This document shows positions 5 through 20,646 of a stretch of 20,646 nt of DNA, piece after piece. Position numbers and translations under genes: made by a program. This stretch comes from Antedon mediterranea (Eukaryota; Animalia; Echinodermata), in contig NW_027306100.1 in NCBI RefSeq assembly GCF_964355755.1, positions 1 to 20,646 on the forward strand, read 5' to 3'. Numbering within the stretch: position 1 is the first letter of the stretch; each line of letters starts with the position of its first letter. The notes under the pieces were generated by a model. That model searched no databases. It saw nothing but the letters and a program-made list of their open reading frames with translations, and was not told the origin of the DNA.

Positions 5-72
5 TAAATAAACGGTGTTTCCAAATAAATGTTAACACTGGTGAAGAATACATTAACGCTTCACACGCTGAG
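5..72 (+). CDS. RPTP D2 exon (..NKRCFQINVNTGEEYINASHAE)
   Basis: YINAS motif in frame 1; donor GAG|gtaggt at 72/73; probable acceptor acag| at 1-4 (window edge, so start less certain). Confidence 0.85.
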
Positions 73-2122
73 GTAGGTACCTGGTTGTGGTGAGAAGAGG
101 ATGTCGTTACAACAAGTCTCACAATATGTAATATTAAGTTTTAATATGAAAATGTGAAAACTCGTTTAAATCTATTAACAATTAAATCGAGCCAGTTTGA
201 TAATAGAAAATGGCACAATAATAATAAGAATTTGTTATTTCAACAGTTCAAATCATCTTGATACATTTAAGAAATACTAAAATGACATGCAGTAGGCATT
301 ATAGGTTTACTCGTAGTAAGATAGAAAGAGCGATTTTTTCGAATAAAATAACTAAAGCTTGGTTCCCACTAGAATCTAACGCAAGGACGTAAACGCAACG
401 CAAGCGTTTTAACCAATGACAAGCGAAGTTATAGACAGTTAGCAATCACAAGCAAATAAGCCATCGCTTGTGATTGGTCAATTCACTTGCGTTGCGTTAG
501 GTCCTTGTGGGAACCAGGCTTTACAGTATAATAATTATACAACGATATAAAAAGACACATGCGCAAGTATCCCCCACATTTTCTCTTTTGTTTTGTATAA
601 TCATGTTTTTTTTTTCAATTAAAGTTTAGTTTGTTTTATTCCGAAGCGTTACAGTGATCATCGTGCTTTTATCGTTACTCGGACACCATCGCATACTAAC
701 AATACTATGGATTTCTGGCGTTTAGTGTTTGACTATAAAAGTGACGTCACAGTACAGCTAACTGAGATGGAAGATATAACGAGTGCACTGTACCTCCCAA
801 AAAAGATCAATCAGAAACAAACATTTGGTGAATATACGGTCATTGTCAAATCAAATTATCAGAATGAATTTATGAATGAGAGGCGAATCGTCTTAGAAAA
901 GGTTAATATTTGTTTTTTCGTTAAGTCAGTGGATAATGCCATATATTATAGATTACTTATCAATGAAATAATTGAAACAAAATATTTATAAGTAATCGTA
1001 GTAACCTATTTTAATTTAATAAATGAGATGATGATTTAAATCAATCGTCTGCTTATCAACCATCATTTCCAGTATCTACTTACTGTAGATATGGAATTGA
1101 TTCATTGATTTGTTTTTTCATTAAGGATGATGGAAAACGACACATTGTTCAGTATGAGGTTAACCAATGGCCAAAAAACGAACCTGTACCAGAAGTCGAT
1201 TCATTTGTTAAAATCATTAGGAAGATAATGGAACGAAATGATACTTTACCAATCACTGTTCATTGCATGTAAGTAAAATCAAAAAGTAAAATTAACTTAA
1301 ATAATTATTTTATATGATAAATGCTTTTCGACTGATAAACATGTATTTCTCTTTTTCACCCAAACAAATTGTTACAGTAACAACTTGTGTCAAGTTAATA
1401 CATAATCTATTGATTTCGCATTTCCAGGGAAGAGTTAATGCAATTTCACTCTTCCCTGGTATTTCTATTCTAATACGGGTGTATATTGGTTTATTTATAC
1501 AATGTATTTATGCAATAGGGATGATTTTGGTAGATCTGGATTATTCTGCCTAGTTTATTCAGTAATACAGAAAATGCGAGAAGACAAGATGGTGGATGTA
1601 TTCCAAACACTTAAAACACTGAGGTCAGCATGTCCTACTGCGGTGGACTCGGAGGTAGTTTATTTTTATTGCGTCTTATTGTCTCTCTTATTTTTCTTGA
1701 ATTTCTATCATACCAATGATTTTCATTCGTTGAATGTGTGCTCAAACTCAATTAACCCAAAGGGTGCTTTGAAGCTGAATCGCCAAAAAGAAATTCATTA
1801 TAAAATAAAACAAATTGTTTTATGTCGTAAATAAAATTTAAAAAAAATCTACATCTTATAAAACTACTTCAGAATCAGAAGCTTTTCGAAGTAATAATTT
1901 ACAATATCAAACTTTATGTGACAAAAAATGCATTGTGCCCATATGGACAATAGTGATGTCATATCACTACAATATTTTGGCACATAACTTTTTTTAAACT
2001 AGAGCTTTATTTAATAATAGTAATAGTGTTTAATGTTGTATTTATAGGTTCAGTACAGCTTTTGCTACGATGCTGCCCTGTGTTATCTGAAAATGTACGA
2101 GGAATATGCTAACGTAAAGTAA
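5..2122 (+). CDS. Receptor-type protein tyrosine phosphatase, 3' part (membrane-distal D2 domain and C-terminus); join(5..72,647..901,1126..1268,1519..1654,2048..2122), 5'-partial
   Basis: Manual splicing at GT-AG sites gives one open frame with ordered PTP motifs: YINAS, FIVTRTP, DFWRLVFDY, QWPK (WPD-loop position), PITVHCMDDFGRSG (P-loop), VDVFQTLKTLR, AVDSEVQYSFCY (Q-loop position), then EEYANVK-stop (TAA 2120-2122). Intron phases are consistent (0,0,2,0). Confidence 0.93.
353..523. mobile_element. Small fold-back MITE in RPTP intron
   Basis: Terminal inverted repeats TAAAGCTTGGTTCCCAC / GTGGGAACCAGGCTTTA (16/17 match) plus an internal ~43-bp inverted pair (aaggacgtaaacgcaacgcaagc..caagcga / tcgcttg..cttgcgttgcgttaggtcctt); TA at both ends. 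Confidence 0.85.
647..901 (+). CDS. RPTP D2 exon (RYSDHRAFIVTRTP..DFWRLVFDY..IVLEK)
   Basis: Acceptor ttttattccgaag| at 646, donor AAG|gttaat at 901/902; overlaps ORF 707..991. Confidence 0.9.
1126..1268 (+). CDS. RPTP D2 exon (DDGKRHIVQYEVNQWPK..PITVHC)
   Basis: Acceptor ttttttcattaag| at 1125, donor AT|gtaagt at 1268/1269; not in the ORF track. Confidence 0.92.
1519..1654 (+). CDS. RPTP D2 exon (MDDFGRSGLFC..AVDSE)
   Basis: Acceptor caatag| at 1518, donor GAG|gtagtt at 1654/1655; overlaps ORF 1502..1834. Confidence 0.92.
2048..2122 (+). CDS. RPTP terminal coding exon (VQYSFCYDAALCYLKMYEEYANVK*)
   Basis: Acceptor tttatag| at 2047; QYxFxY motif; stop TAA 2120-2122. Confidence 0.92.
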   Translation, partial: VQYSFCYDAALCYLKMYEEYANVK

Positions 2123-2199
2123 AATACCACTAAATACAACTATGGATTTAATTCATTGTTCATTTGTTGATAGAGTCTTCTTAAGCTTTCGCTTTTGTG

Positions 2200-2680
2200 A
2201 CAATCAATTCTTCTTATTGTTTGTTGGGCTCTCTCTGGTTGTAGTCTCGTTCTATTTGTGTTTTTAACTTATTAATTGACTTAGAATTTACTGTAACGGG
2301 CAGTAAGTTGTTCCATTTTTCGACAATGAAATATGAGAAAAACTTTTTCTGTGCATTTTCCTAGTATGTTGCTTAAGGATTTTAAAGTTATGGCCTTGTG
2401 TTCTATTTTCCTTATTAAATGAAAAGTAATCATTTGGATTTAAATTGTTATAAACATGGACCATTTTGAATAGTTGAATAACACAAGAACGTTCACGTCT
2501 ATAGTGTCGAAAGATGTATTGCAATTCTTCTTGTATCATAGCTAAAGTCTTTCAATTCTGGAGGTAGTTTAGTTACTCTCCGTTGTTTTTACACTGTTAA
2601 CATTGCTATACTCATGGAAAAGATTTCAACGTGTAATAATGCTGTACTAATCTTCAGATGGACAGCCCTGTTTAATTCAG
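2200..2680 (-). mobile_element. Decayed CR1-type LINE ORF2 3' fragment
   Basis: Minus-strand translations across frameshifts give KQRRVTKLPPELKDFSYD, YRRERSCVIQLFKMV, RTQGHNFKILKQ and WNNLLPVTVNSKSINKLK, matching the CR1 ORF2 C-terminal pattern (QRRATK..YRR.RGD..RTRGH..KL.K..WN.LP). Boundaries approximate. Confidence 0.8.
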
Positions 2681-3562
2681 TGTGTTCGAATTAATTGTGT
2701 TGTGTTAAGTTATATTGTCCCTCTGAAGAAAAATATGCCAATTTAATGTCACATAAAAATTATTAACTTCTATCAAAAATTGGATCGACAAACATGTTTA
2801 CCAAAATCGGCTGCCTACTAGTGTGATTTTAGTTGAATTTAACTGATTATTTATTTTTTTGGGGACAATATATCTAAGAAAAAAAACTTTCTTATTCAAC
2901 CTTAACTTTAAAATGCGAACATAACATAATATAAACATAAAAGGGAGTATGAAAAATTTTTCAAAAAGAAAACTTGTGTTTTGAACAATTTCAGTAGGAG
3001 TTCTTTATGTAATGTTGGACCATAAAACTAATATATACTGCATTCAAGCGAGTATATGTTTTATGTAAATAATCAAAGCGTTTTGTATTATAACAGTGAA
3101 TGTCCGTTTTTTTTTGGAGTAAAAAAACGAGCTGTAGGTGTTAATTATCCGTTGAAAATCAGCGAAATAATGGAAAAACTAATTCCGCCTCCATCCAACA
3201 CCGATCTGTGCTTTCTTTATCGACAACATTTACTGTTTTTACTTCTAAAAAATGATAAAAATAAGATGTTAAATAAAAAAAGTTTTTATATCCTAAATAG
3301 CTTTATGTAAATCATTATCCAATTGCTCTGTACATTACACTAACAATTCTAATTAACTAGGCGCAGGCGAGTGTGTCATGTTACGTTTTGAACAGGTTAT
3401 TATTATTTCTGAAATCATATTTTAATTAAGATTTTGCTTAATAATATTATACTTACTACTTCTTTCGGTAATAAAAGCTTATACCTTCATTATATTCTGT
3501 AAGAAGTATTTTATTTAAATTCACTTCGTATCAGCTGTTCTCAGAAACTATCCCGCCGTCAG

Positions 3563-3863
3563 TATTTTATTTTATTTTATTTTATTTAATTTTCAGGCAA
3601 ACATACATGACAACACAGCGGTGCAGCACCCTGAGGATTGCCATGAGTGCAAAGCACTATCGAGATGGCTCTCCATATACTGCACTAGAACATATAAGAC
3701 AAACATATACACAAGATGCTCTACATAGACAAAGACTTATTATTAAGTCTTTGGGAGTGGAGTTGTAAATTGTCATGAGAAAAAAACCCTGACATATGAC
3801 AGGACTTGAACCCAGGACCCTTAGATTGGTAGCCAAGCATCATAACCACCAAGCCACAGCTCC
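3563..3863 (-). mobile_element. tRNA-derived SINE
   Basis: Minus strand starts GGAGCTGTGGCTTGGTGGTT with Pol III A box (TGGCTTGGTGG, 3846-3856) and B box (GGTTCAAGTCC, 3802-3812), then a ~200-bp body and an (AAAAT)n tail (3563-3593). Confidence 0.85.
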
Positions 3864-4889
3864 ACTGTATAATACTACTATAATGTTGAAATACGATCAA
3901 TTAAGAAAGAAGAATAGTAATATAAAATAAATAAATAATAAATGCGCTGCTTATAAGTAATTTTTGTTTTTTTCCGACAACTGGTGGCCTCCTTTATTGT
4001 TGTTTGCGACTGTATGATAACGACTGGACAAAGAGCCAAGCTTTTCAAATTTTAACTGACGGCAAAAACAACGTAAAGCAACCAAAACAGGAACGTTACG
4101 TTACGTTTACTAAATAATGCATGTTATAAGTTGAATTTGGAGAATACGCATGAATTTAAAGACTGATTGTTTCCGTCAACAAGGATAATATCGGTTTACA
4201 ACGGACTGGTATACTGTGGATTAATGAATGTTTACGCTGAATCTACAGTACAGTCATGATGCTAATGCAATTATATTGCAGCCGGCCCGCAGACCCTGAG
4301 TTGAAGTTAGCGCGAAGTTCAAAACATTACTTTAAACGTATTTAAGCCTACATTTTCCTAATGCTGGTCGATTGCAGAACAATTTTCACTTGATGTACGT
4401 AAGTATCATGCCACTTGTTATTCCTATACGTTTTCTAGCGCCTAGGCCAACAGCCGCTGTTGGAATATGACTTTAGAGAGTAGCCTCTATTGATAAAGAG
4501 TATAATGTGCATTATGCCTAGATACACTCTGTATAGAATACATAACGTTCGGACGGAGTATAAATATCATGTGATAGGATAATAAATCAATACCGAATAT
4601 ATTACCGACAACAATTTAAGGTTTCTACTCATGCGCTGTTAAGATTAGTTTTACATATTATTGTATTAATTATTGTTTAACGAGCTCAAAACGGTATAAG
4701 CTGACATACATGACGCCCTCAACACTTCTCAAAACAACGGTACATATACTAGTTTACACGAAAAGTTAAAATATGATAATTTAACATGATATTGATAATA
4801 ATATTATATAAAACATTATGCAGGAAAGTAATATTTATGAATCATTATAAATCAAAAGCAAAATACTGAAAAAATGCTGTGGGTATCAG

Positions 4890-4919
4890 TATTTTGTATC
4901 TCAATTGAGATACAAAATA
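4890..4919. repeat. Perfect 30-bp palindrome
   Basis: TATTTTGTATCTCAA|TTGAGATACAAAATA equals its own reverse complement. Confidence 0.9.
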
Positions 4920-5122
4920 AAATAATCAAAAAACTAAATCAGCCATGAAAATTAGAGAGCTAATTATATATATGCATTACAAAAATATATTTGCTTGTGA
5001 ACAATTTATTTTGAAACCCTAAAGGCCCTGTCATACCTTGACGATTTAGGCAGCGAGTCCTCAACGTTTCGAAGTTTTTTTAAAAGGCTGGCATACTGTG
5101 GGATTTTCCATTTTTTACATGT

Positions 5123-5602
5123 TGTCACGAACTCCTCTAACGTTTGTTTCCAAGCGGTTGAAAATACTTTAGGGACTCCCTTGTGACATAAAAGTATATA
5201 CACACAATATCCACAATTTTGTAAAATAACTCAAAACAAAGCTTTAATTCCAATCAACTTCAACTTTCAACAATCCAGTAAGCACTTTAAACAACAGCTT
5301 CACAATAACTTTTACAATATACGGTAATATCCAACGTCTAATATCCAATGCTCAAAATAAATGCTTCAATCAAAAATCCTTCTCCCCCTTACAATTGTCA
5401 TACTTCCCCTTATATACAATATGTTCATAACCTTCTAGATCATTCCTTATACTTCTTATTCTATTGTTACAGTTTCTATTAATAGCACTTCTGGAATGTT
5501 CTTGATTGTTCTTACATGGTTTCTTATATCAAAACATCTTATTCTAGAATGTTCTTGTAGATACTAAGTTACTGTATCTGTTAGGAATGGTAATTTATTA
5601 CA
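5123..5602 (-). repeat. 3' LTR (480 bp, apparently complete)
   Basis: On the minus strand it starts TGTAATAAAT right after the PPT, has TATA-like GTATATAAGGG (~5408-5418) and ATTAAA (~5243-5248), and ends CGTGACA at 5123. Confidence 0.75.
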
Positions 5603-5624
5603 CTCCCCCCCCCCCCCTCTTTCT
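5603..5624 (-). other. Polypurine tract (plus-strand primer site) of the LTR element
   Basis: Minus strand AGAAAGAG(G)nAG immediately precedes the TG of the LTR. Confidence 0.75.
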
Positions 5625-6916
5625 GAGCTGAAAACTCTTTCTTGGAGTTTTGAGGGGCAAGTATACACGGACGTGGCAAAATTTAACCCACTCCTAGTCT
5701 GTAAAACTTAAATACGCCATAATAACGTACAACATAATTATTAATATTACTAATAACTAGATGGCACGCTCGCTTCGCTCGCGTACCATCTAGGGGTGCT
5801 CACAGATGGTTCTCGGATACAGTAGAATCCACGGACGGGGACTTTTTTGGGACACTAAACAAAAACGGAAGTGTCCCCCTAATTGGGGTATTCAGAAATA
5901 GAGACAACAAAACCAATACTGGATTCCATAAAGGACAATTAATTTATGTGGATTAAAGAAATTAGGGAGAAATGGAAATGTATGTACGGGAATTGGGCGG
6001 CGGCACGTGGTGGTGGTGATGAAACCGCAGTAATAAAGTTGATTGTATTTATATATTATAAGAACCAAACTAAATAAATAGACCTAGACATTCTGCGAAA
6101 TGGAAATCGGAAATTCAAGCTCCTATTCAGTGAAAAATTAAACTGTAGTCTACCTAAATATTTAGGGCAAATCATCGGTTGTGGTGTTGAACTTCCTGTA
6201 AACATTTGTGTGAACCAAACTGGGTCGAATTTCTGTCATGAGTACTGATTTGTTGGCCTGTGATTTATGACGCCTAAGGGATCTATCTAGACTTATTTTT
6301 TAGAATAATGTACGTACCTGTCAGATACAATTGTCTTGTGTCGTATAATAAATAAGTACTGTAATAGTTACTGAAGTTACTATAATTACAATCTCGTCAA
6401 TGAAAACACGAAAATGTATATGCACTTACTTATGAAAACGTATACAGTATTATACTCAGTTATTGAAACAGTAGGTTTAAAAAAGTTTCGTTTGTCTGTA
6501 AAATGATGTAATCAAGCTGTTTACATGAGTCTTAATTTATAAGCACATCAATAATAAAATAGTTTATCTATCCTGTAATTGGCGAGATTATGGTCGCTGT
6601 TGAATGAAATAAAGCCAATCGGTATCATATTTGTACAGAAACGTTTTCGCGGCCGAAGGGTGTAACCTAAATTCGTTGTATTATCGTCAAGAACTAACTG
6701 TAACTAAACTTACATAGAAAGTAGGGTATCATAAATTTGGCCTTAGCACTCGGGGGAGTGGCTAAGATGAAGTCCGTGGGACTACTAAATATAAATTGTA
6801 ATGAACCTCGAGGGACATAAATAGGAATATTTCATGTTTCATTATCAATGTATAATAAATGGAAACTGTTTACCGATTCAAATAATAGAAATTGGTTTTT
6901 TAACATTTTCCGAACC

Positions 6917-7271
6917 TATTGCAAGTTTATTCTCAAAGGGCCCATATATTTACCTACCGTATGTGTTAAACCAAGGGCTCATAAATTTACCTACAGTACT
7001 TGTGTTAAACCAAACTGGATGTTCCATTCATCGCAAATCAATACATTTGTATAATCGTATATTAAATCTATCAAAATAGTATTTTTTAAAGAAAATCGGC
7101 CTGTCTTCAACATTATGATGGTGTACTCTAGCAATCTATCAAAATAGTATTTTTAAAAGAAAATCGGCCTGTCTTCAACATTATGATGGTGTACTCTAGC
7201 TGTTCAACCGGTTTTCAGCTATTAAAAACAATTATCGTAGGAGGAGATAGGAAAATGCGAAGCCTCCTCGC
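6917..7271 (+). repeat. Direct repeat copy A inside the Helitron (partner 7728-8033), with an internal 2x68-bp tandem duplication (7065-7132, 7133-7200)
   Basis: Near-identical to copy B except for 19 bp missing and the 68-bp duplication (306-19+68=355). Confidence 0.92.
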
Positions 7272-7727
7272 TATGTAACATTAGGGTTGAGGGATGGGAA
7301 AGCGGATAGGTACAAAGAGGAACAATTTTTAAATATATTCTTTATCCACTGAGTAACGAAATATTTTGTTCATGTTTTATAGGCCTATAAATAATATACC
7401 TCTAAATACAGTAGGCCTAAAACATTTGCGATTTAATACTTTGTTAAAACTGTCACTGTCATAATCGATTGAAATATTAAAGTACATGTCACGATACACC
7501 ACTACGACGTTTATATTTTTGGTAATTATTAATTAATACAAACGTTGAGAAGGAACTGTCAGTATAAAGTTTATTTGTATATCTAACAGTAGAGCCTATC
7601 CACAGTCTCAGTAATAAAGTTTATTTGTATATATTTTTATATTACATCTAACAGTACGAACATTCACAGTAAGAAATGTTCGATTCAAATGAAAAATAGT
7701 TAATAGGTATTTACAGTATTGTCAAAG

Positions 7728-8033
7728 TATTGCAAGTTTATTCTCAAAGGGCCCATATATTTACCTACCGTATGTGTTAAACCAAGGGCTCATAAATTTA
7801 CCTACAGTACTTGTGTTAAACCAAACTCTGGCAGACTGAGAGATTGGGATGTTCCATTCATCGCAAATCAATACATTTGTATAATCGTATATTAAATCTA
7901 TCAAAATAGTATTTTTTAAAGAAAATCGGCCTGTCTTCAACATTATGATGGTGTACTCTAGCTGTTCAACCGGTTTTCAGCTATTAAAAACAATTATCGT
8001 AGGAGGAGATAGAAAAATGCGAAGCCTCCTCGC
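7728..8033 (+). repeat. Direct repeat copy B inside the Helitron (partner 6917-7271)
   Basis: Direct alignment by eye from tattgcaagtttattctcaaaggg to gcgaagcctcctcgc. Confidence 0.92.
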
Positions 8034-8487
8034 ATTTTTTTGGCGGGTATTTTTCAAGATGGACATCCATTAGACAGTGTATACCACGATCGGAAAACAC
8101 CCCTATTTGGGGCAAATCTTTGAACCTAAATTCGTTTTAATCGTCAATAACTAATTATCTAACTCAATTTAATTAGTAAACAGGGTTACATCAGGCGGTT
8201 AAAATCAGTACCGAAAGTACGAACCAACTTTACATACCATCGAGTGAAAATTCTAGAAGTAAGGCGAGATTTACCGAATTTTGCCCTTACGTAAATTTAT
8301 ATATAGATGAACCAACAATATTCATGTCAATTTGTCGGAATGGTTCACTAATTACTGACATAGGAATCATCGGGGCCTTCAATTTAGTTTTATACTTTGA
8401 AGCTTTACAATACTCTGTCAAAGAAATATCATGTGAAACTTTCAAAACACTATTACGGCAAGGGTATGGAACTACTAATTGCTCTAT

Positions 8488-8681
8488 TGTTCATAACCTT
8501 CTAGATCATTCCTTATACTTCTTCTTATTCTATTGATTACAGTTTCTATTAATAGCACTTCTGGAATGTTCTTGATTGTTCTTATTAATTATACATGGTT
8601 TCTTAAATCGAAACATCTTATTCTAGAATGTTCTTGTAGATACTAAGTTACTGTATCTGTTAGGAATGGTCATTTATTACA
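8488..8681 (-). repeat. Truncated 5' LTR (U3 portion only)
   Basis: Near-identical to 5422-5602 with small indels; similarity stops abruptly at 8488. Confidence 0.8.
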
Positions 8682-9894
8682 CATGTACATGACGTATTCT
8701 TAACGAATTGGACGTGTACACTGACTGTGTGTCCAGTCATTTCAGTAGTTTATGTACGTTTGTTTATGTAAGTTGTATGTTGTCATTCATCATAGTAATA
8801 CATTATATTGTATATATCGTATTTATTCGAATAAACACCTCCCTCAATATCAAATAATGTATTATGCTATCGTAAATACATTATTACTGAATAGAAAATT
8901 AGATTGAACTAAAGGATCTTCTGTCTCATCAGCGAGATAATTTCAAAATGTCACATTGATATTTTTCAATTAATATTCCAAATTGTTTAAAAACATTATT
9001 ACCTTACTTGACCTTCATGAAAGAAATATTTGATTTGTTATTATTGTTTCCTCGTTATTATCCGACTTGTTGTCTATTCCAATCGCTTCCTTAATTGCCA
9101 ACTTCAGAGCCTGAGTAGTCCTTAGAATAATGGTATGCTTAATCCTTATGTAATTAAAATAGCATTTAAATCTGGATACAAATAATACAAAGCAAAGGAA
9201 TCGAGTAAATAGAAAATAGAAAGAAAAAAGTTGTTTAGTGGATCATGATTTGTACTAATTTGATTAGAGGTAATTATGCATCGAATATAATGTAACGTGT
9301 ATATAAACAAGAGATGTCGTGTTCAATAGAACAGTAAGCTAGTTGGCCATTTCGAATCATAACTGGAATGGTATTATTATGATGATGATATAATTAATAA
9401 TATACTCTTTTGATCTCTTACCCTAACATTTTGTTTTAATATTTTTAAAACTCTACAAATTATTAATTAGTTTTAGCTATAAAACAGCTTCAAAGCTAGC
9501 TGTATATAGCTAAAAATGAGTTTATCTCAGTGCCGTTATTTTAATATAACGCCTATTAGGCTACTACAGCAAAACATACCTCATTCCTGACCTTTGATCC
9601 TAAATCCATGAACAACCTGAAAATTAAAACAATGTGCAAAACATTAGTATATTATTTGTGTGCATGAGAAGTAGTTTTTTATTCATGCTTTTTAATTGTT
9701 ACCCCTGCTGACCATTGCGTTACCTTTGATCCCAAGTTGTGAACACCACATAAAACGTGGTACCATGATAGTTGTCTTCTGCAACTAGTATACTGTACCT
9801 AACTTATCTAAATTCTTCCTTTTTATCATCGGTTCCCATCTTCGATAATCCTGTGACCTCGTCATCATTCCTCCCACACCCTCTCAGATAATTA

Positions 9895-10290
9895 AGGAAT
9901 CACTGTAAATAGAATTGAAATACAATATTGTAAGTTTAAATGGAGAAAGTAAATGTCAAGTAACGTAAAAGGAAACAATGTAAATATTATTAAAAGAATC
10001 ATCTGTGTCCGGTGTCAGGAATTGGAATTGGAAGATCAGGAAACTTGTTTAAACATAAAACGTTGACGAACATACATCACAAGGAAACGATAACTATTTA
10101 AAATTAAACTGTGGACACTGCATTAACCCTCGATTAAAACTAAGGAATTATTTTAAGATATTCGGGTTTCAGGAATTAAAGAAACATGAACCATGGTTAA
10201 ACATAAACGAGCATACAAGGAAACGATATTATATTTACTGACGAACATTGCATTTATACGGAGTACAACTAAGGACCATCCATATATAGT
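9895..10290 (+). promoter_or_regulatory. Candidate proximal promoter of the Tie-like receptor gene
   Basis: Eight same-strand AGGAA (ETS-core) words, TGTTTAAACA at 10046-10055 and TATA-like CATATATA at 10281-10288, directly upstream of ATG 10312. Transcription start unknown. Confidence 0.35.
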
Positions 10291-10311
10291 GGTTAGGGCA
10301 GGAGTATAGAG

Positions 10312-10375
10312 ATGTTTTTCTCTAAATGTTTTCAGACTTTTAGTCTTTGTTTATGCTTGCAATTTGGATCATCAG
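10312..10375 (+). CDS. Exon 1: signal peptide (MFFSKCFQTFSLCLCLQFGSS)
   Basis: ATG in GAGATG context, hydrophobic 21 aa, phase-1 donor CAG|gtatgt compatible with exon 2. Confidence 0.7.
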
Positions 10376-13300
10376 GTATGTCTTAAATCTCATCTCTTGT
10401 TTGGTTTCCCATTTACTAATACAAGTATTACTACTTACTTATTTAATGGACACCTGTGATTATTTTAGTCAGATTGACGTCAAGTATGTCAATTGATATA
10501 ATGGTATAATATTATTGGTGTGTAACATTTGAAATTCATGCCCCAACAACAACAAAAATCTAACAAAAGTAAACTTGACAAGATAGGAACTTGTAACATC
10601 TATGGGATCTTATGTCCGACTCCGACAAATACGAACAGTGTACTATGTACGCGCCGCGCGATATCGCAGCAACAGATAAACCCTTTGATTTCCGGAGCTC
10701 TCATCATGTTGTTAGATTGCCATGGCCTAGTTCTGTTATGTGCTTTTATATTACTAAATCCACGTTTTTTTTTTCTGTTTTTTAAGTTTGTACTGTCGCA
10801 CCTTATATAAAATCAATGCACTTGCATTTTTTAGTAACCTCCCACAAATGTACCGTATACTTACAGTATCAAGATGCTCTACAGGTGGAATGCCATCCTG
10901 AGATGAGTAGTAGTAATTAGTCTTGTTTATTTTATTTCATTTATATTATGTATTTTACTTTCTATGGACCAGATATTCCGAAATAAAAGATTGAATTAAT
11001 GAATTACTGAAGATATCTATCTGAAATTACATATTCTTGCACACTCAATTGAATATTATTATACAGAAATTGCCTGCTAAAGCCCGGCGCACACTAGAGC
11101 TTTCGGCTGAGCCAACTGGCACGAGTAACACTTGCCTCACAGTGTGCGCCGGGTATTTTTTGAGGAATTGGAACGCGTGCCGCTGAGGAAAATATCTATC
11201 ATGTTTAATATTTTTTGGCACGCGTGCCATTTTCCTCAAGTGTGCGCCAAATGTGAGCTTCCTGCTCACTAAAAAATTCCACTGCGCATGACATTTTATG
11301 ATTTATTATGATAATATTTCAGCGCGTGTGCGCCCGGCGCACACTAGAGCTTTCGGCTGAGCCAACTGGCACGAGTAACACTTGGCTCACTAAAAAAATT
11401 GCCACAAACTATGTTCGCGTTCTATCGGACGCACACTAAATGCCTTCAGTACGCAATTTTCTGATTGGATAATTACTTACTACGCTATACAGCACGCGCT
11501 GAAACATCATAATAAATCAGAACATGTCATGCGCAGTGGAATTTTTTAGTGAGCAGGAAGCTCACGTTCGGCGCACACTTGAGGAAAATGGCACGCGTGC
11601 CAAAGAATATTAAACACGATAGATATTTTCCTCAGCGGCACGCGTGGCCGATTCCTCACGAAATCCCCGGCGCACACTGATGTGATGCAAGTGTTACTCG
11701 TGGCAGTTGGCTCAGCCGGAAGCTCTAGTGTGCGCCGGGCTTTAGAGGTTTAATATAGGATTTGACTTCCCCGAGGGAATAATATTTTTTTCGATAGAAT
11801 ACATTTCCCGAAGCGCGAAGTATATTCCATCGAACAAAATATTATTCCCAAGGGGAGGGGTTGTCAAATCTTATATTTTACCGATATTAAAGGCGATATC
11901 TGTTATATTACAAAGCCAACAACAAGTAGAATATCTGCAGGGTCGGGTAGCTACCTCAGGCCTCCTTTTTGTATTGTATGTATTGTATGTATCAATATAA
12001 TCGTACTCGAGGATATATAGTATATTATGTTCGAATAATAACTTTATTTACTAAGGACGATTTAAACCGTATGAGGTGCAATTAAATATGATATTATTCC
12101 AAACCACTTTATTAAAATATGTTTAAAAAGTATTTTCTGTAGGGTTTGCCATATTTATCCATAAGAGTACTATTTGTATTAATTAAAACATTGTTTTTAT
12201 GTCTCTTTGTTAAGATCCATTGGATATAACCGTATATTCTAATACACCACTGACGTCACCTAGTATTACCAATAATAAAGGTAATCTTGTTATTAATAGT
12301 CTGTTTCGAGGATATGCACTTCAAGACGACAAAGACATCAGAGATTTATCAGTTGGAATATTGTACAAGAACATTGATGGGAAAGATAACGTGACTTGGG
12401 CTGATACTGATGATATTATATATACAAAACAACAACAAAAAGATATGCCAGATGGTAAAATATTTGACACAAATAGCATTATTCAATATCGGAAATTCGG
12501 AACACATACGTATTTAGGTGTTGCTAATTTACAAAGTCAGATTGAGAGAGTTGGTGTATTTTCATTTAAAGCAAAGAAAGACGAAGTAGTCACAAATTCT
12601 GCAATTGTATTGACATCAGCTTTTGGTGAGTATATTTTTATTGAAACTATCTATTTTGCATTTATTATTACAATTATAAACTATTTATCAACACTCTAAT
12701 TTGTTGTAGTAATACACTGTATACAACTAAAAAAGTAAATGCTTCTTGTATCGTTTAATCTTACAGCCAGTATTGAAATGGAGTATAGAACGATAACCGT
12801 CGGTATCGGAGAGTCTGTCACTATCAATCTCAGTAAAGGTGGTGGTGATCTTAACGATTTACGCTGGAGACATAATTATGGAGATGAAATACACAATCTG
12901 AGGGGTAATACGTCTGCTGTGATTGAAAACATACGAAGAAAAGATGATGGCGTATATGAATGTTATACAGGTGATAGACCGGATGGTAACCATGGTATCA
13001 TGAGACTAATTGTTAGAGGTAGGTTTATTAACAATTATTGCAGGACATCCTATTCATTTCTTTTGTCGTCTTGAAGTTCGTAATTTTATAATTTCTGTTA
13101 TTATATATATATAAACTTTATTTAAACACGAGACTGATGTGCAGTACAACTCGTTCAATCAATATTGATTGTTTTTACACAAGTTCGTGATACTGTATTA
13201 CACAAAAAAAATCAACACCATATAAATACAACAGAAACGAAAAAAAATTGAAATTGAAAAGAAACAAAATTGCAGCAGAATCCCCTTCATCTGACACCTC

Positions 13301-16300
13301 TATTTAGGGTACACCATACCGGTACTTCCCGTGTAAACGGAAACCCTTATCGAAGTGTATAATTTATGGGGATTCAACTGTAATACATAATAAATCTTTT
13401 GGATTTCATTTACCTTAAAATAATAGTGATAAAACACACATTTTACATAGTATTTAGCCATTTTAAAAGTTGGATGTACACCATCGTAGATTACCATACC
13501 ATTATGTTTTATAATGCATTTTTCAGATACGTTTTAAATAACTTAACTGAATTTGGAAGGGTATCAACATTGAGACTATTCCATATAATTGCTCCACGAT
13601 AAGACAGACTTCGTTTTTTAAAATCGGTTTTTGGCTTTGGGATAAATAGATGTGTATCACTGTGCCTTAGATTATAATTTATATCATTGAATGTAAATAC
13701 ATTATTTAGGTAAGGTGGGGCATTATCTGTCAAAACCTTATATATAACCATACAACATTCATATCTATCTTGATAAAATAAAGGTGACCAATTAATTTGT
13801 CTTAGTGCTTCACTACTAGGTGTGTACCATGTTAGACCACACACGATTCGAGCTGTTCTGTTTTGGATAGTTTGAACTCTTTTCATTAGAGTTTGACTAC
13901 TATTTCCCCAAATTATGCTACAATAGCTCAAGTAAGGTATTACAATAGAGTTTGCAATATGTTTTAATATGTCTTGTGGAAAATAATAGCTACATCGTCT
14001 AAGCATACCCAATCCATTTAGAGCTTTACCTCGAATGTATTCAATCTGATTTTTCCATGATAAATGTTCGTCTATTATGATACCGAGATGTTTGCAATAT
14101 CGAACGCGTGGTACAACATCGTTATCTATATTAACTGATCTATTTTTTTCTTTGGTGGTTGCCAATCGGTTTGTCGATCCGATCAACATGAACTCGGATT
14201 TAGAGACATTTAGACTCAATTTATTATTTTTTAGCCAATCGTCGATTTGTATAAGTTCTTCATTTATACTTTGGTATATTTCATTTTCATTTTTTGAAGA
14301 ACAATAAATTATAGTATCGTCAGCATACATACTTATTTTACATTTGTTTGCAACTTTCGATAGGTCATTTATATATAAGAGGAAAGCAAGTGGGCCCACG
14401 ATTGACCCCTGAGGCACTCCACATTGGATGTGTGTATAGTCAGACAATGTACTATTTACATTTGTGAATTGCTTTCGCTCAGACAGATAGCTCTCGAACC
14501 ATTTTAAAACATATTTACTTGAACCATAAAGTCTCAATTTGCTTAATAGTATGCTATGGTTTACCGTATCAAAGGCCTTTTTAAAATCTAGTAAACAGAT
14601 TCCGACCAGCTTACCCTCGTCTATTGCACTATACCAGTCTTCCGTCACTTTTGTAAGTGCAGTAGATGTTGAGTATGATGGTCGAAAACCTGATTGATTT
14701 ATACATAACAGATTATCTATACTGTACCAATTGTTCTTTATCATCACACTTTACAAAAACTTGGGCCATTGTTAGAAAAGATAGTTTAAACCATAGTGAC
14801 TTCGCTCGCTTATCCTCTAATACCCATATGGGAACACGTATGGTTCTCGAAAATGTTAATATTGCCTTAGGTAAACTTGAATCTCGGAAAATTAATACTT
14901 ACTGTATGTGATGCTATGACGGAAGAAATTAAAGTGAATGTATGACCTACCAAACTTATGCATTTTTAAAGTTTGATTTTAGTACAAATTGTACAATGAA
15001 ACTACATCCACAATTTATCTACGTAGCTTGTCCTTCGCCAAAATGGAATCCTCCAGACTGTGAAATGGACTGTCCTGTATGCTACAATGGTGGAGTGTGT
15101 GATGATAAGACGGGTGTCTGTATTTGCCCACCAGGATTTAAAGGCGAATCTTGTCTAAACGGTAATGTATAGTGTGTTGATCTTAAAGTGCTATTGTAAT
15201 ACTATAGTCACTGATACACACAATAAACAATTTCTGTTTTGATATTGGGATTTATATATTTGTATTTTATAATATGAAGTCAATTGTGTAATTAAAAGGT
15301 GATTTTAGGCTAAATTCGCGTTGTTTTATTTTCGGTAGGTTGTGGAAATAACACTTGGGGTCGTGATTGCCTCTCTATATGTAGCAGCACATTTGGTAAT
15401 ACATGCTTTGGAGTTTTGTTATGTCCACCTGATCCAGTTGGATGTTCATGCATCGATGGTTTAAGAGGAAACCAATGTCGTAAACGTTAGAAACAAATTA
15501 TTAGTGTATAATACAATATTATAGTTTAATTAAATAATAATATTAGTTGTAATGCTATCGTAATATATATTTTCTCTTTTTCGTCATTTGTATAATTGCA
15601 GTAAAGAAATGTCATCTAAGTTTAGTTTATTATGTAAATTTTAGTGATAAATAATGGCAAATATAATTTGTATATAGAATGTGAGCCTGATTTCTATGGA
15701 GCAGATTGTCGTCAACAATGCCACTGTGACAATTGTGATTCATTTAAAGGATGTACTTCCGGGTCAACGTGTTTAGATGGTTACACTGGAGAAGGGTGTC
15801 TCGGTAGCATCTAATATATTTAATTAAAATGTCTATACATTTTCCAATATTTTAATGAACGTTGCTTTTAACCCGTGATTCATACAATTTCTTTAGGGCC
15901 TAATGACTACTGTAGATCACCATCTACATGTACTTGTCGTAAAGTATTATAAGGCAATCCCTATTAAAATAAAGTAAAATATAATGTAGGCCTACTGTTA
16001 TATTATTGAAGATCACGTTACATGAAAATAAATAGCATAAAGGAATAAAATGTACACAATGTGGTAATTTGGTTGGTATAATTTCCTGAAGATTATTATG
16101 ATATAAAATGTTACTCCATCAAACAACAATAATTTACAACATAATAGTTCATGACAATCATAATGTATCTAAATCTAAGATTAAGCAAATAGAAGTATCA
16201 TATTGTCACACACCACCAATTTGTATCTTAAAACATGGTCAATTGAATAATACTCTTCTTCATGTGTCTTTTGTCATGTATAGTACCCACTTTGTGTCCG

Positions 16301-19300
16301 TCTGGATTCTTTGGTATTTTGTGTAACTACCCATGTCACTGCAAAGATAAAGAAGATTGTAATCGAGATGGAAGTTGCAATAATGGGTGTCATGAGGCTT
16401 GGGCTGGACCAAACTGCAGCATAGGTAACGTACCCTGATATAATATATATGTTATATTGTTAGCAAGTATTTTTACTTTTCGACGCCCGGAAATAAGATA
16501 GCAAAAATTGAACATTATATTTTGTTTTCAATTCTCCGCCTAATTGTATGTATTGTTCTAAATTCTTGTAGATTTTCTTATTTTGTAATTTTGCAATCCT
16601 ACATAATGGTTTTTTTTTTGCGCCACTTTTGTTAATCCATAATTTCACTCACTTTCCGATCTGTTTTTAAATACGGTAGTCACAAAACATTAATGAAATC
16701 TAATATTCTATATTTTAATATATTTTACTCCTCGTCATTCTTAAATCTATTATTGTACTTTTCTTTCATTTAAACGTCTGTGTATGTGTTGTTTATTAAC
16801 TATTGAAACTTTTTTCAGTAATTATGATAACAGTAAAGACAATTTTCGTTTTTAAATTTACTACTACTGGCCTTCTTTTCCTTTTTCTATTTCTTCAGCG
16901 CTTGTTTGAATCGAGTCCTTTTTTTTTATCTTTCCCTTTTTACTTTGCATGGTACCTTGTTATTTTTATGCCAATCATTCTCCTTTCTATTGCATACTAT
17001 TTTTTAAGTTTTTAGATCTAATTTTAGGTCACAAACTACATTAAATGTAGAAATAAGTACAATATGGTCATATTGTTTTCATCTTTAAACAATTAAAATG
17101 TGAAAAAAAGTTTATTATAATAACCTAAGCGTCCCCTATAAATCCCAACATGCATTGCGCGTGGATTGATATTTTCGTCTTTCTTCTGTGGTTTTTCGAT
17201 CGATTGCGAAAGCAAAACAATTAGAAGAACCGTTCAGCGGAAACACATGTTCTTTCGGTTCTTCATAATTTAACATAAAACGCACATTTAAGACTAGGAA
17301 TGATCTGGTTTAATGGTTTTATAGGAATATATATGCATTGTTTTTACAAAACGGCAAACATTGTAGAGAATAAGTCTTTAATTTATCTTTGTTCTTCTCG
17401 GTAAGCTGTATGTGATGTTCGAACACTTTCTTTCTGATGCACATTGGTATTGAATATTGCAGAGGATGTCATTGAAGCGGCCATCCTGTAATAATGCTGT
17501 ATGCAATTGCTTCACTTGAATTCGATAGGCTCATAGTTTGAACTAAGTGTTTAGGGGTGGTAGCTTCAATGACATCATCTGCAATATTCAATACCAATGT
17601 GCATCAGCAAGAAAGTGTTCGAACAGTGCGAGTCAAGTGGCCGACAGGGGCACCTAAAGATCCAACAACATCTGCAAGGGTTCTCCTAGTTCTGGTGGTG
17701 GAACAAGTCTTCTCGGATAAGGACTATAAATCGTAGGTCCAGTGTACACAGTTATATTCTGTGTGCACTTTACAGAACCCAGTTCATTATTCGAGAAGAG
17801 TAGGGGGTTACCCCGGTGAACTGGTTCACACAATTACCACCTATCTGATAAGACAGTGATTCATTTACTATTGGTAATCCTTGGTCACATTGCCTAAAAA
17901 CATAAAATAAAATTTATTTTGTTGACTTTTACATTTCTGCGTCATCAAAATTCAATTGTTTGGTTTGTGTCAAAATGGATCATACATTTAGTTTTCCCAT
18001 TGTGTAATTTTAATTTGCTTGCTTTCTTTTTTTATCTTGTTTGACTAAATTGGATCACCTTGTCAAACTCCTCTCTTGACATTTTCTTCTTTATTGTTAT
18101 GTATAAATTCTTCCCTGAAGCATTATCATAGAGTAATAAGAGTAATGTTATTATACTATAGATGAAATGATTTTGTTTTGTTAGCATTACCGTACCATTT
18201 TGAACCGCCAACTATTGTAAACCAGACTGCAGCTACCTTAACGTTTGACGTCACTTGGAATCCTGATGAAGACTATGGAACAGGAATGATTACAAAACGA
18301 AAGCTGTGGTACAAATCATCTGACATGAATAAGTGGTCATCATTACCTAATACGAATAAATTAAATCTATTTGTGAATGCGAAAATTCAGTTTCGATCAC
18401 AGTTTTTTAGAATGGTTAAAGGTGATCAGACATTTGGACCAAAAAGTAAAATTGGATCGATACAACTGGTCTGTTTAAGTAAGCAATGCCTTACTAACAA
18501 TTGTTATTCATAATCTTCACTAGAAATAAGCAAGCATGCGCATATTTGTTTCAACCTCATTCATGATAATTAAAACGTATAGGCCTAGGCTATTATGTAC
18601 TGTACTGACATATACTTTACTTTATGTCGCATACCGTTTATAGTAATGATTAATTTTACAATCAATCGTAAAATTTGTAGGCATTTTGATCAAATTCTTT
18701 AAAGAATATCATGTAAGTAAATACTGTAAGCTCACAGACCAATTCTACCTTTTATATGTTTTATTTATTTATATATTTGTATATTGTTGCCCGTTATGGT
18801 CGTACATATAGTGTATTACTAAGGTCAATAGATTATTTGAAAAATTTAACTTGGATTTTAAATTACGACCGCACATTTTTACAGTTCATGATATTTTAAG
18901 TTTAAACGTAGTTGTAGTAGTAGTAGTTTTTAATTCTATTCTTAATTATTAATATGTATTTTTTTCTGATTATTACTATAAAATACCGGTATGTATTCTG
19001 CCAGTTTTACATTAATTTGTGAATAATGTATTAAATGTTTATTGTTTTCTTCAATTTATTATACTATAGAACCTTTAGTAGAACCGAAAATAGAAATACA
19101 AACTATCAAAGAAAATAAGGTCATTTTAAACGTAAAGGTAATCAATATTATTTTATTTATTTTCTGTTCTTTTATCAATTCAATTTGTTTGTATTGTCAA
19201 TAATGCTATCATATTAGGCTTTGAGATTATAGAGATTCATTTTAAGAATCAACATTCTTTTACAGTAGTTTAAATACAACAAGTTCACTGTTTTACTTTT

Positions 19301-20456
19301 CAGTCAGTTTCAAAAGATCCTGAGCAAATTCAATGTACGTCTATTCTTCGATATCAAGTACAATACTCAGATGGAAATAAACAAAATATTGTCAACACAA
19401 CAAGTAGTTCTCAATTAGAGGTAGAACTATCAGGGTTATCAAGTTGTAATGCTTATGTCGTAAACGCTCGAGTTATTAATAATATGGATATTGCTGGTAA
19501 TTGGGGAGAGAACCTGATGGTACAGACAGTTCCCTCGAGTGAGTTAGACTATGTATGCATAAATTACACTAATTATAATTGAGTGATGATTTAGTTTGTA
19601 GTTGAATACCATGCAGACATAATAATATAAACCAGATAGTACAATTTAATATAAATTAAGACTCGCAAATTAATAGACTCCTTCAGCATTGCCAATTATA
19701 TAAACATTTGTTGAACTATTTAATATTGATAATAGGCTAGTGTAAGTTTTAAAGATTAAACAATAAAATAATGAAATCAATTTGAAGGATATTTTTTTTT
19801 AATTAGAGCCAACGATAGAAAGTAATCCATTTGCAAATGAAACACATTTACTGATGAAGTGGAATGCTGCTATGTGCGAAGTGCCAAACCATAATGTGAC
19901 CTACCATTATGAACTATCAGGTGGAGTATTTCAGCAAGGAACTACAACAGAAACTGAAGTTTTATTTGACGATGGTATTGAATCCTGTATAGAATATACA
20001 TTTACGGTCTTAGCGTCTTATTCAAATTTTAAAGGAATATCTGACACAACGACAGTTATGCTTGGGACAAATTGTGATTCTGGAGGTCAGGGTAAGTGTA
20101 TGTTAAACATGCCGCACTTGCCTTGCTTTATATTCCGTTTTAGATTATTAAATTAATTAAAGAACTATTGCCCTTTCATGCTGGTAGTTATATAATACTT
20201 ATACATAAAACTAAATTATCATCTAAAAATAATTATGTTCAGTTAATATCTTGCTATTTGTTTTGTTCCCGTAGGCCTAATAAATCTAGATTTTACATTC
20301 CTTCCTTCTCTCAAAAACTTGCTTAATAAATGACTACACAATAAATAATTTCATAGTATTTATTTATTTATTTGAAGGTACTCCAATAGGTGTGATAATT
20401 GTATGCCTGGTTCTACTGCTTGTGATACTTATTCTGTTGTTGATTGTAATTAAACG
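10312..20456 (+). CDS. Tie1/Tie2-like single-pass receptor, ectodomain and TM (SP-Ig-Ig-EGFx4-FN3x3-TM); join(10312..10375,12215..12625,12767..13018,15027..15161,15339..15485,15678..15803,16284..16424,18185..18478,19070..19137,19304..19538,19807..20091,20378..20456), 3'-partial
   Basis: Twelve GT-AG exons splice into one 2237-nt open frame (745 codons + 2 nt). Tie-type words: LDITVYSNTPL, TITVGIGESVTI..DDGVYEC..MRLIVRAC, CYNGGVCDDKTGVCICPPGF, CPPDPVGCSC, FYGADC, YGTGMITKRKLWYK; hydrophobic TM followed by KR. Cytoplasmic domain not in the window. Confidence 0.92.
10865..11006 (+). mobile_element. Possible short LINE 3'-end remnant
   Basis: RWNAIL-coding stretch, T-rich segment, AATAAA (~10982) and a ttgaattaatgaatt tail; very degenerate. 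Confidence 0.3.
11078..11744. mobile_element. Large fold-back MITE (~250-bp inverted arms) in intron 1 of the Tie-like gene
   Basis: Termini TAAAGCCCGGCGCACACTAGAGCTT / AAGCTCTAGTGTGCGCCGGGCTTTA; arms ~11078-11328 and ~11493-11744 are reverse complements with scattered mismatches; GC-rich relative to the flanks. Confidence 0.9.
11752..11878. repeat. Imperfect hairpin repeat (~55-bp arms), probably part of another non-autonomous DNA element
   Basis: aatataggatttgac..gggaataatatttttttcgatagaata pairs with tattccatcgaacaaaatattattccc..gtcaaatcttatatt. Confidence 0.75.
12215..12625 (+). CDS. Exon 2: Tie-type Ig domain 1
   Basis: Acceptor tctttgttaag|, donor G|gtgagt; ORF 12220..12699; N-terminus resembles mature Tie2 AMDLILINSLPL. 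Confidence 0.88.
12767..13018 (+). CDS. Exon 3: Tie-type Ig domain 2
   Basis: Acceptor cttacag|, donor G|gtaggt; WRHN, DDGVYEC, RLIVR. Confidence 0.93.
13102..14720 (-). mobile_element. 5'-truncated non-LTR retrotransposon (L2/Crack/Daphne/CR1 group) in intron 3, antisense to the host gene
   Basis: RT ORF followed by ~400 bp of 3' UTR, AATAAA (13117-13122 on minus) and a (TA)n tail; 5' junction approximate; no endonuclease or ORF1. Confidence 0.9.
13509..14747 (-). CDS. LINE ORF2 reverse transcriptase domain and C-terminus (5'-truncated, uninterrupted 412 codons)
   Basis: QSGFR, LLDFKKAFDTVNH, GVPQGSIVGP, YADD, KHLGIIID, QNRTARI and WNSL motifs; the first ~10 codons are probably host flank. 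Confidence 0.93.
   Translation of the reverse strand: MMIKNNWYSIDNLLCINQSGFRPSYSTSTALTKVTEDWYSAIDEGKLVGICLLDFKKAFDTVNHSILLSKLRLYGSSKYVLKWFESYLSERKQFTNVNSTLSDYTHIQCGVPQGSIVGPLAFLLYINDLSKVANKCKISMYADDTIIYCSSKNENEIYQSINEELIQIDDWLKNNKLSLNVSKSEFMLIGSTNRLATTKEKNRSVNIDNDVVPRVRYCKHLGIIIDEHLSWKNQIEYIRGKALNGLGMLRRCSYYFPQDILKHIANSIVIPYLSYCSIIWGNSSQTLMKRVQTIQNRTARIVCGLTWYTPSSEALRQINWSPLFYQDRYECCMVIYKVLTDNAPPYLNNVFTFNDINYNLRHSDTHLFIPKPKTDFKKRSLSYRGAIIWNSLNVDTLPNSVKLFKTYLKNAL
15027..15161 (+). CDS. Exon 4: EGF-like repeat 1
   Basis: ACPSPKWNPPDCEMDCPVCYNGGVCDDKTGVCICPPGFKGESCLN; acceptor acgtag|, donor G|gtaatg. Confidence 0.95.
15339..15485 (+). CDS. Exon 5: EGF-like repeat 2
   Basis: GCGNNTWGRDCLSICSSTFGNTCFGVLLCPPDPVGCSCIDGLRGNQCRK; acceptor tcggtag|, donor C|gttaga. 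Confidence 0.93.
15678..15803 (+). CDS. Exon 6: EGF-like repeat 3
   Basis: QCEPDFYGADCRQQCHCDNCDSFKGCTSGSTCLDGYTGEGCL; acceptor tatatag|, donor G|gtagca. Confidence 0.93.
16284..16424 (+). CDS. Exon 7: EGF-like repeat 4
   Basis: VPTLCPSGFFGILCNYPCHCKDKEDCNRDGSCNNGCHEAWAGPNCSI; acceptor tgtatag|, donor G|gtaacg. Confidence 0.92.
   Translation, partial: YPLCVRLDSLVFCVTTHVTAKIKKIVIEMEVAIMGVMRLGLDQTAA
17416..17625. repeat. Inverted repeat, 63-bp arms (61/63 identical) with 84-bp spacer
   Basis: 17416-17478 is the reverse complement of 17563-17625 with two mismatches. Confidence 0.92.
17626..17911 (+). mobile_element. 5'-truncated SINE with a Deu/Nin-domain-like core
   Basis: 17713-17825 (GGATAAGGACTATAAATCGTAGGTCC..TTACAGAACCCA..TTCGAGAAGAGTAGGGGGTTACCCCGGTG) resembles the recalled AmnSINE1/SINE3 Deu-domain; A-rich tail near 17896-17911; tRNA/5S head missing. 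Confidence 0.7.
18185..18478 (+). CDS. Exon 8: FN3 domain 1
   Basis: ALPYHFEPPTIVN..YGTGMITKRKLWYK..GPKSKIGSIQLVCL; acceptor tttgttag|, donor A|gtaagc. Confidence 0.9.
19070..19137 (+). CDS. Exon 9: FN3 domain 2, N-terminal half
   Basis: KPLVEPKIEIQTIKENKVILNVK; acceptor ctatag|, donor AAG|gtaatc; needed to restore phase between exons 8 and 10. Confidence 0.85.
19304..19538 (+). CDS. Exon 10: FN3 domain 2, C-terminal half
   Basis: YQVQY..LSGLSSCNAYVVNARVIN..GNWG..VQTVPS; acceptor cttttcag|, donor A|gtgagt. Confidence 0.9.
19807..20091 (+). CDS. Exon 11: FN3 domain 3 and stalk
   Basis: LLMKW..YHYEL..IESCIEYTFTVLA; acceptor ttaattag|, donor G|gtaagt; ORF 19854..20156. Confidence 0.92.
20378..20456 (+). 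CDS. Exon 12: transmembrane helix (GTPIGVIIVCLVLLLVILILLLIVIKR)
   Basis: 22 hydrophobic residues then KR stop-transfer; acceptor tttgaag|, phase-2 donor CG|gtaaat. Confidence 0.9.
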
Positions 20457-20646
20457 GTAAATGATATTTTTTGCTGTTCTTATTATTCTGTTATAATCCA
20501 ATCATGTATTTGTTTGTATCACTCTTTCTGGTCATATGTTTTCCCTACTCTGACGTAACTGTACTTAATACAAACTCTGAGAATACCTTCCAGTAATTCT
20601 CGAGTGGGATTATTTTATTTTGAGCATACCTCCCTTTCTTTAATAC

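Follow-up and report, generated by a model that had tools for sequence, protein, structure and literature searches.

Introduction

In textbook accounts the Tie ectodomain belongs to two kinases, and angiopoietin-type fibrinogen domains bind Tie through its second immunoglobulin domain (Ig2). Here we describe a stretch of the genome of the crinoid Antedon mediterranea (20,646 bp, apparently one entire contig, hereafter the window) in which the tail of a receptor protein tyrosine phosphatase (PTP) gene is followed by a gene with a Tie-type head. The window probably holds the last part of one gene and the first part of its neighbour, both from a crinoid family of Tie-headed receptor PTPs, the upstream copy being a predicted pseudophosphatase and the downstream copy a predicted active enzyme, as parts of a candidate live/dead paired array. 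Public protein models are cited by P numbers, and P0001 (XP_071965931.1) is the model of the downstream gene.

The closest described receptors to the downstream gene are Tie1 and Tie2 (TEK; PDB 2GY5, 4K0V, 9LV4), with which it shares the Ig1-Ig2-EGF1-3 head, the predicted fold, three FN3 domains and a single transmembrane (TM) segment. In contrast to them, the crinoid family has a fourth EGF domain in place of Ig3, a PTP or pseudo-PTP tail in its nearest relatives and many copies per genome, and P0001 is not a Tie orthologue. The Ig2 segment that corresponds to the angiopoietin site is shorter in the family and unlike that of Tie. The pair formed by Tie2 and VE-PTP (PTPRB) is comparable in that Tie-type sensing is balanced by a receptor phosphatase, according to the available part of PMC10815196. 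VE-PTP, however, has an FN3-only ectodomain and belongs to a separate gene family, whereas the crinoid receptors would combine head and phosphatase in one chain.

For the tail, the nearest systems are the R2B PTPs (PTPRK/M/T/U). The best single-D1 PDB matches of P0007, a Tie-headed Antedon paralog, are PTPRK (272 bits) and PTPRT (256 bits), with PTPRA close behind among the single-domain matches. Both groups have a degenerate D2 P-loop and a dead member beside live ones, as set out for PTPRU in the accessible text of PMC7320164. The crinoid family differs in its Tie head and in giving no MAM match in P0001, P0007, P0010 and P0016. Further, PTPRU keeps an inactive D1, whereas the dead crinoid copy would have lost D1 outright, to judge from predicted models.

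KIR, LILR and Siglec are families of paired activating and inhibitory receptors. Like these, and like the paired allorecognition receptors FF/FcoR of Botryllus (excerpted text of PMC12582321), the crinoid family is multigene and joins shared ectodomains to differing signalling tails; the known families use ITIM/ITAM motifs, whereas the tails here would themselves be enzymes: PTP or dead PTP, with kinase added in sea stars. Another invertebrate case, in which paralogous receptor PTPs rich in EGF domains form a cluster and vary in their ectodomains, is the MEGF-type SudRes1 locus of Biomphalaria sudanica, which the accessible part of PMC12297450 ties to schistosome resistance. SudRes1 has MEGF along with a galactose-binding domain, and an Ig-Ig Tie head and D1-less or kinase partners go unmentioned in that part of the source. 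An immune link is shown there for the snail.

Our full-text literature search returned no paper describing Tie-ectodomain phosphatases; it left most subscription journals outside, so an earlier description is possible. They go unmentioned in the accessible parts of PMC10815196 and PMC10084454, and a list of sea star coelomocyte markers gives a Tie-2-like kinase and a PTPRF-like protein as separate entries (available text of PMC13409769). RefSeq already includes family proteins, named automatically, and the Tie-headed receptor PTP family is apparently unnamed in the literature searched.

Results

A phosphatase tail and a Tie-type head on one strand

The window has 32% GC and its genes are spliced. 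The upstream PTP tail consists of five exons on the + strand (positions 5-2122) encoding 224 aa with no stop inside the frame; its internal junctions are AG/GT throughout, and it ends in TAA at 2120-2122. Pfam Y_phosphatase (PF00102) was matched in all three PTP exons scanned (E 2.9e-11, 2.5e-5 and 2.9e-6). From the stop at 2122 to the next ATG at 10312 there are 8,189 bp, and the downstream gene continues on the same strand with 12 exons (10312-20456), every junction being AG/GT. Ten of its introns are in phase 1 and one is in phase 0, and the TM exon ends with KR at a phase-2 GT after 20456. The spliced product of 745 codons equals residues 1-745 of the 746 in P0001. The contig runs out 190 bp past the TM exon, and both gene halves are left unjoined by the contig ends. 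The exons are as follows.

5 to 72, + strand: upstream gene, first visible D2 exon with a phase-1 acceptor, earlier exons lying beyond the contig (matches D2 of P0016/P0017)
647 to 901, + strand: upstream gene, D2 exon 2 (Pfam PF00102, E 2.9e-11)
1126 to 1268, + strand: upstream gene, D2 exon 3, with WPK replacing WPD and the start of the P-loop (HC) (Pfam, translation, paralog alignment)
1519 to 1654, + strand: upstream gene, D2 exon 4, with the remainder of the degenerate P-loop HCMDDFGRSG and Asp for the Q-loop Gln (Pfam, translation, paralog alignment)
2048 to 2122, + strand: upstream gene, final exon with TAA stop (translation)
10312 to 10375, + strand: downstream gene (P0001), ATG and likely signal peptide (match to public model)
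12215 to 12625, + strand: Ig1 of Tie type, with more variation among Antedon paralogs than any other Ig (profile, structure model, paralog alignment)
12767 to 13018, + strand: Ig2, conserved among paralogs (domain scan, paralog alignment)
15027 to 15161, + strand: EGF1 (domain scan, PDB match)
15339 to 15485, + strand: EGF2, with the Tie-type CPPDPxGCxC motif (PDB match)
15678 to 15803, + strand: EGF3 (PDB match, profile)
16284 to 16424, + strand: EGF4, at the place of Tie Ig3 (domain scan, profile)
18185 to 18478, + strand: FN3 a (structure model, profile), spliced to 19070 in run X5
19070 to 19137, + strand: FN3 b, first part (run X5 contigs, splice check)
19304 to 19538, + strand: FN3 b, second part (domain scan, run X5, splice check)
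19807 to 20091, + strand: FN3 c (splice check, structure model), spliced to 20378 in run X5
20378 to 20456, + strand: TM exon ending KR with a phase-2 donor (splice check, structure model)

The head of the downstream gene is Tie-type. The best PDB matches of P0001 are three Tie2 ectodomain sequences (E 4e-35 to 5e-35; next match 1e-6), and a profile built on 55 relatives aligns with Tie2 residues 2-322 (E 7e-84), with a second match at the first FN3. In the AlphaFold model of P0001 (predicted local distance difference test score 88.8), Tie2 is the top-ranked Foldseek match; superposed on Tie2 2gy5, the model gives Z 33.2 and a root-mean-square deviation of 3.0 Å over 306 residues, the next unrelated row having Z 15.7. 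The Pfam Tie Ig family had no match at Ig1 in the domain scan of the P0001 exons, and the homology of Ig1 rests on the profile and the structure model. The three FN3 domains and one TM segment are placed by model strands (435-710), a helix (724-745) and FN3 structural matches.

The layout is thus Ig-Ig-EGFx4-FN3x3 with a single TM. Frog Tie1 and lamprey Tie have Ig3, whereas here the EGF4 exon leads directly into FN3. The original prediction had a receptor PTP ending at 2122 and, about 8 kb on, a same-strand gene following the Tie pattern through to a TM exon ending KR in phase 2; the gene structures and the Tie2 matches bear this out, except that EGF4 stands where the pattern calls for Ig3. 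In the crinoid family profile the segment of Ig2 that forms the angiopoietin-binding site of Tie2 is shorter and dissimilar, and the fibrinogen-domain ligands first proposed are therefore at most candidates for the Tie-headed crinoid receptors. Across 12 close crinoid paralogs, variable columns (consensus under 50%) are concentrated in Ig1 (35/146) and EGF3 (18/54), against 2/86 in Ig2 and 3/45 in EGF1.

Both genes belong to one crinoid subfamily

Searching with the Ig1 exon gave 15 proteins of 262 candidates, all crinoid, two of them with PTP families and none with a kinase family. A cluster look-up led to P0016, which has a Tie head, a TM segment and a single PTP domain. The PTP tail of the window is 93% identical to P0016 over all 224 residues, 92% to P0017, 93% to P0018, 60% to P0096 and 56% to D2 of P0007. 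Given this identity, an unrelated receptor PTP as the neighbour of the Tie-headed gene was ruled out. In the D2 tree, the window PTP groups with P0016/P0017 (Shimodaira-Hasegawa-like approximate likelihood-ratio test, SH-aLRT, 99), then P0096 (100), P0007/P0010 (98) and P0033/P0038 (99). In the ectodomain tree, P0001 groups with P0007, P0016, P0006 and P0015 (99), then P0010/P0019 (95) and P0033/P0038 (97); it lies in supported sets of 5, 7, 9 and 13 rows, with no kinase in any. All trees were quick and unrooted, and canonical receptor PTPs were not among the rows.

Owing to the PTP identity to a Tie-headed protein and the concordant trees, we place both window genes in one crinoid subfamily. 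Full Tie-head and PTP architectures are present in the paralogs P0007, P0010 and P0016. It is very likely, on sequence grounds, that each window gene possesses its off-contig half, namely a Tie head upstream of the PTP tail and a PTP tail downstream of the Tie head. That the window joins the tail of one copy to the head of the next, as first proposed, is still the best reading, and the opposite outcome (a kinase downstream, beside a PTP with an unrelated ectodomain and no local paralogy) is not what the comparisons gave. The 33-row crinoid clade contains a PTP domain in six rows, the start of the wedge in two more and a kinase in none.

The window itself has two copies head to tail, and a single 31.9-Mb contig carries 18 family models, some of them perhaps isoforms or the two halves of a single gene. 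In P0071, on another contig, a PTP tail and then a Tie head are fused in one model, as expected of head-to-tail neighbours. No fetched model is closer than approximately 66% to P0001 over its length. An Atlas search that started from P0016 yielded clusters with FN3+PTP and contributed little more. When the FN3 stalks of P0007 and of P0016 were folded together without alignments, the predicted complex scored 0.00, gave no verdict and was not used.

The Tie head is widespread and occurs on different tails

A total of 235 proteins were fetched, a set that is redundant and biased toward the crinoid clade; 225 have the Tie core, divided into 51 with PTP, 17 with kinase and 157 with neither. Tie-PTP forms were found in crinoids, sea stars, a brittle star, urchins, sea cucumbers, amphioxus, spiders, a scorpion and a tick. 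The predicted Tie-head/PTP architecture is therefore old, being present in each of the five echinoderm classes as well as in amphioxus and arachnids. A crinoid-only chimera was ruled out by this spread, and the idea of a purely local chimera has to be given up. Among the arachnid proteins, P0054, P0058, P0088, P0093 and P0158 (spiders, tick, scorpion) are long Tie-headed receptor PTPs with D1 of the active type by its motifs. No protostome kinase form was found among the named matches.

Kinase-bearing ectodomains do not form one clade (approximately unbiased (AU) test, p 5e-54). In sea stars, kinase and PTP receptors are each other's nearest relatives: P0080/P0083 (75% over 1,182 residues) and P0087/P0089 (81% over 865) in Patiria miniata, and P0085/P0086 (84% over 710) in Asterias amurensis, whereas same-tail paralogs of other pairs are only about 40-52% identical. 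With amphioxus P0179/P0181 included, kinase/PTP ectodomain identity is 65-84%. In the sea star pairs the likeness continues through TM, and the partners are on contigs of equal length, which suggests that these predicted kinase and PTP proteins are paired receptors. Amphioxus P0181, with a D1-like second domain, may be a separate fusion.

The Tie-type head also occurs elsewhere. In sea cucumber P0060 and P0066 it is on a GPS and seven-transmembrane adhesion G protein-coupled receptor. In each of the predicted amphioxus chains P0105, P0106, P0108, P0109, P0110 and P0113, it is joined to a fibrinogen C domain (PF00147), which has the fold of angiopoietin type.

The upstream copy is a probable pseudophosphatase

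The PTP domain in the window is D2-type, with WPK for WPD, the P-loop HCMDDFGRSG and Asp for the Q-loop Gln; the set of catalytic motifs KNRY, WPD, HCxAGxGR and Q-loop Gln is thus incomplete in the visible domain of the upstream gene. In P0016, the Tie head, TM and a wedge helix are followed directly by D2, D1 being wholly lost, and the junction in P0017 is identical. The KNRY loop is deleted in both. An active D1 is therefore absent from both of the nearest paralog models that cover the region. P0096, also from Antedon, has a decayed D1 without KNRY, the Pro of WPD and the catalytic Cys, plus D2; by its sequence it is a doubly dead receptor, intermediate between the putative live and D1-less forms. 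Predicted models with D2 only are also present in one sea star (P0082) and one sea cucumber (P0063).

These models make it likely that the upstream copy resembles P0016 in being a pseudophosphatase that lacks D1, and it would for this reason not dephosphorylate. The original prediction, in which the receptor outputs dephosphorylation, would not hold for this copy. YxxP motifs dock SH2 domains of the Crk/Abl type. The juxtamembrane tail of P0016 has 153 residues, with nine Tyr and three YxxP, versus 88 residues, four Tyr and no YxxP in P0007.

A different view of the same family and array dispenses with pairing: the copies would turn over by birth-and-death duplication, dead and truncated ones decaying, and the functional member would be an ordinary adhesion-type receptor phosphatase. 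The many short or split models (157 of 225 Tie-core proteins are without a catalytic domain), the decaying D1 of P0096 and the transposons in introns are all in its favour. On the other hand, the D2 frame in the window is open with intact splice sites, at least four D2 copies are 92-98% alike, D1 loss recurs in the sea star and sea cucumber models, and P0016 gained tyrosine motifs. We regard birth and death alone as unlikely.

The downstream copy and its missing tail

P0007, P0010 and P0038 have KNRY, WPD, HCSAGAGRTG and the Q-loop all present, and P0007 and P0010 each consist of a Tie head, TM, D1 with full catalytic motifs and D2. The TM exon of P0001 is 59% identical to that of P0007, compared with 37% for P0016, 33% for P0006/P0015 and 19% for P0096. 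We therefore lean toward a downstream copy of the active type, with D1 and D2 like P0007.

Read data cover part of this gene. Run X5 is RNA by an automated guess; no run is on record as RNA, and X1, X4 and X6 behaved as DNA. Contigs of run X5 span three of the four introns in 18100-20646 at GT..AG with few mismatching letters, the junction 19538-19807 not being seen in this run, and run X10 gave only short, paralog-like pieces. One X5 contig ends exactly at 20456 and overlaps the next contig by 30 nt, and this break is a weak hint of spliced continuation. Among the loose ends listed, none lies after 20456; two loose ends and 29 pieces fell outside the list.

Several points weigh against an active tail here and against the live/dead array as a whole. 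All full-length architectures, the D1 skip included, are predicted gene models. The likeness of the TM exon concerns 27 residues, and when single exons are compared the paralogs have a mosaic look. Neither a catalytic domain nor a wedge is present in 25/33 rows of the crinoid clade, P0001 among them, which shows that truncated or tailless forms are frequent; the searches began from this clade, which biases the PTP counts upward. At least nine kinase/PTP tail changes are required on the 64-row ectodomain tree, which gives a kinase tail some small probability. X5 contig 13 reads from the TM exon into the following intron at depth 4, and P0001 itself terminates at a TAA embedded in the donor (20458-20460).

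The last two points, together with the short-tailed family models P0006 and P0015, are what would be expected if the downstream gene were complete as annotated, a tailless membrane-anchored decoy stopping after KR. However, 7/16 donors in the window begin with GTAA, and a GTAA donor at a phase-2 intron gives a stop codon by itself; with only 190 bp of contig left beyond the TM exon, no later exon was available for annotation; and X5 contigs break precisely at the donor. A tailless decoy is improbable in our view.

The sister relationship of kinase and PTP receptors in the ectodomain trees of sea stars and amphioxus favours another tail, that of a Tie-type kinase, which would make the locus a kinase/pseudophosphatase pair. 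Against it stand the kinase-free crinoid clade and the position of the true Tie kinases: the crinoid member of that clade, P0211, groups with frog Tie1, lamprey and Saccoglossus (SH-aLRT 97) and is just 36% identical to P0001. P0001 as a true Tie kinase or Tie1/Tie2 orthologue, grouped with P0205, P0211, P0215 and P0234, was rejected (AU p 0.0003, 33 rows). A kinase tail is thus very improbable in the window; the kinase beside a PTP that was once offered as the alternative seems instead to exist in sea stars.

That the contig is an uncollapsed haplotype or misjoin and the adjacency no separate locus, as a 20.6-kb contig beside a chromosome with close PTP-tail copies might imply, is hardly credible given that no fetched model exceeds the above identity to P0001 and that contig words are present at 78-84% in four runs of one sample and exons at 98-99% in a second sample.

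Passenger elements and repeats

Two elements lie in introns of the downstream gene and outside the receptor.

13512 to 14750, - strand: LINE-type (long interspersed nuclear element) reverse transcriptase frame, intron 3, passenger (RVT_1 E 2.2e-29)
11077 to 11745, no strand assigned: palindromic MITE-like (miniature inverted-repeat transposable element) element, intron 1, passenger (inverted repeats I1, I3, I4, I8)

The reverse transcriptase frame is open over 412 codons. A contig of run X4 skips 13100-14711, possibly from an allele or paralog without the LINE insertion. Further palindromic MITE-like elements are at 17416-17625 and 392-498, and read depth is raised at 11077-11745 and 17416-17625. 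Between the genes there are direct repeats, 88-100% alike (5422-5603 / 8488-8682 and 6881-7271 / 7692-8033), which are possible substrates for unequal crossing-over. No tRNA was found in the window.

Discussion

A shared ectodomain with opposed tails in one genome is seen, in predicted models, for P0007 versus P0016 in Antedon and for the sea star kinase/PTP pairs. A paired array is the working model with the best support among those considered. For the live/dead array, the following mechanism is plausible, if short of probable, by analogy with described phosphatases. Copies that differ mainly in Ig1 and EGF3 would bind different cell-surface or foreign ligands. Live copies would dephosphorylate substrates recruited by D2; recruitment by PTPRK is D2-dependent, according to the accessible text of PMC9640194. 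D1-less copies would retain the D2 that binds substrate and would be competitors for substrate and ligand, in the manner of PTPRU against PTPRK, and the available part of PMC7320164 has inactive PTPRU binding substrates of its active relatives. The tyrosine-rich tail of P0016, with its YxxP motifs, could in addition dock SH2 adaptors. The array would then act as inhibitory and counter-inhibitory paired receptors.

More tentatively, the Tie head may have been an old, swappable sensor on receptor phosphatases before the vertebrate Tie kinases, which in echinoderms could serve a paired system with enzyme outputs (live PTP, D1-less pseudo-PTP with SH2-docking tyrosines and, in sea stars, kinase). 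Its partners would be kept alike by ectodomain exon exchange, and variable Ig1 and EGF3 would be for self/non-self recognition.

In many cases, public names such as 'Tie-1-like', 'angiopoietin-1 receptor-like' and 'PTPRT/mu/kappa-like' stand for two halves of one family, and expression studies counting halves named as Tie among the Tie kinases may consequently be misled. Since predicted phosphatases of echinoderms, of amphioxus and of arachnids carry it too, the Tie head is better viewed as a module that can be reused. This opens the origin of Tie/angiopoietin signalling to tests, with respect to the first tail and the old ligand. Live, dead and kinase tails on near-identical heads would make this family a candidate invertebrate paired-receptor system with enzymatic outputs.

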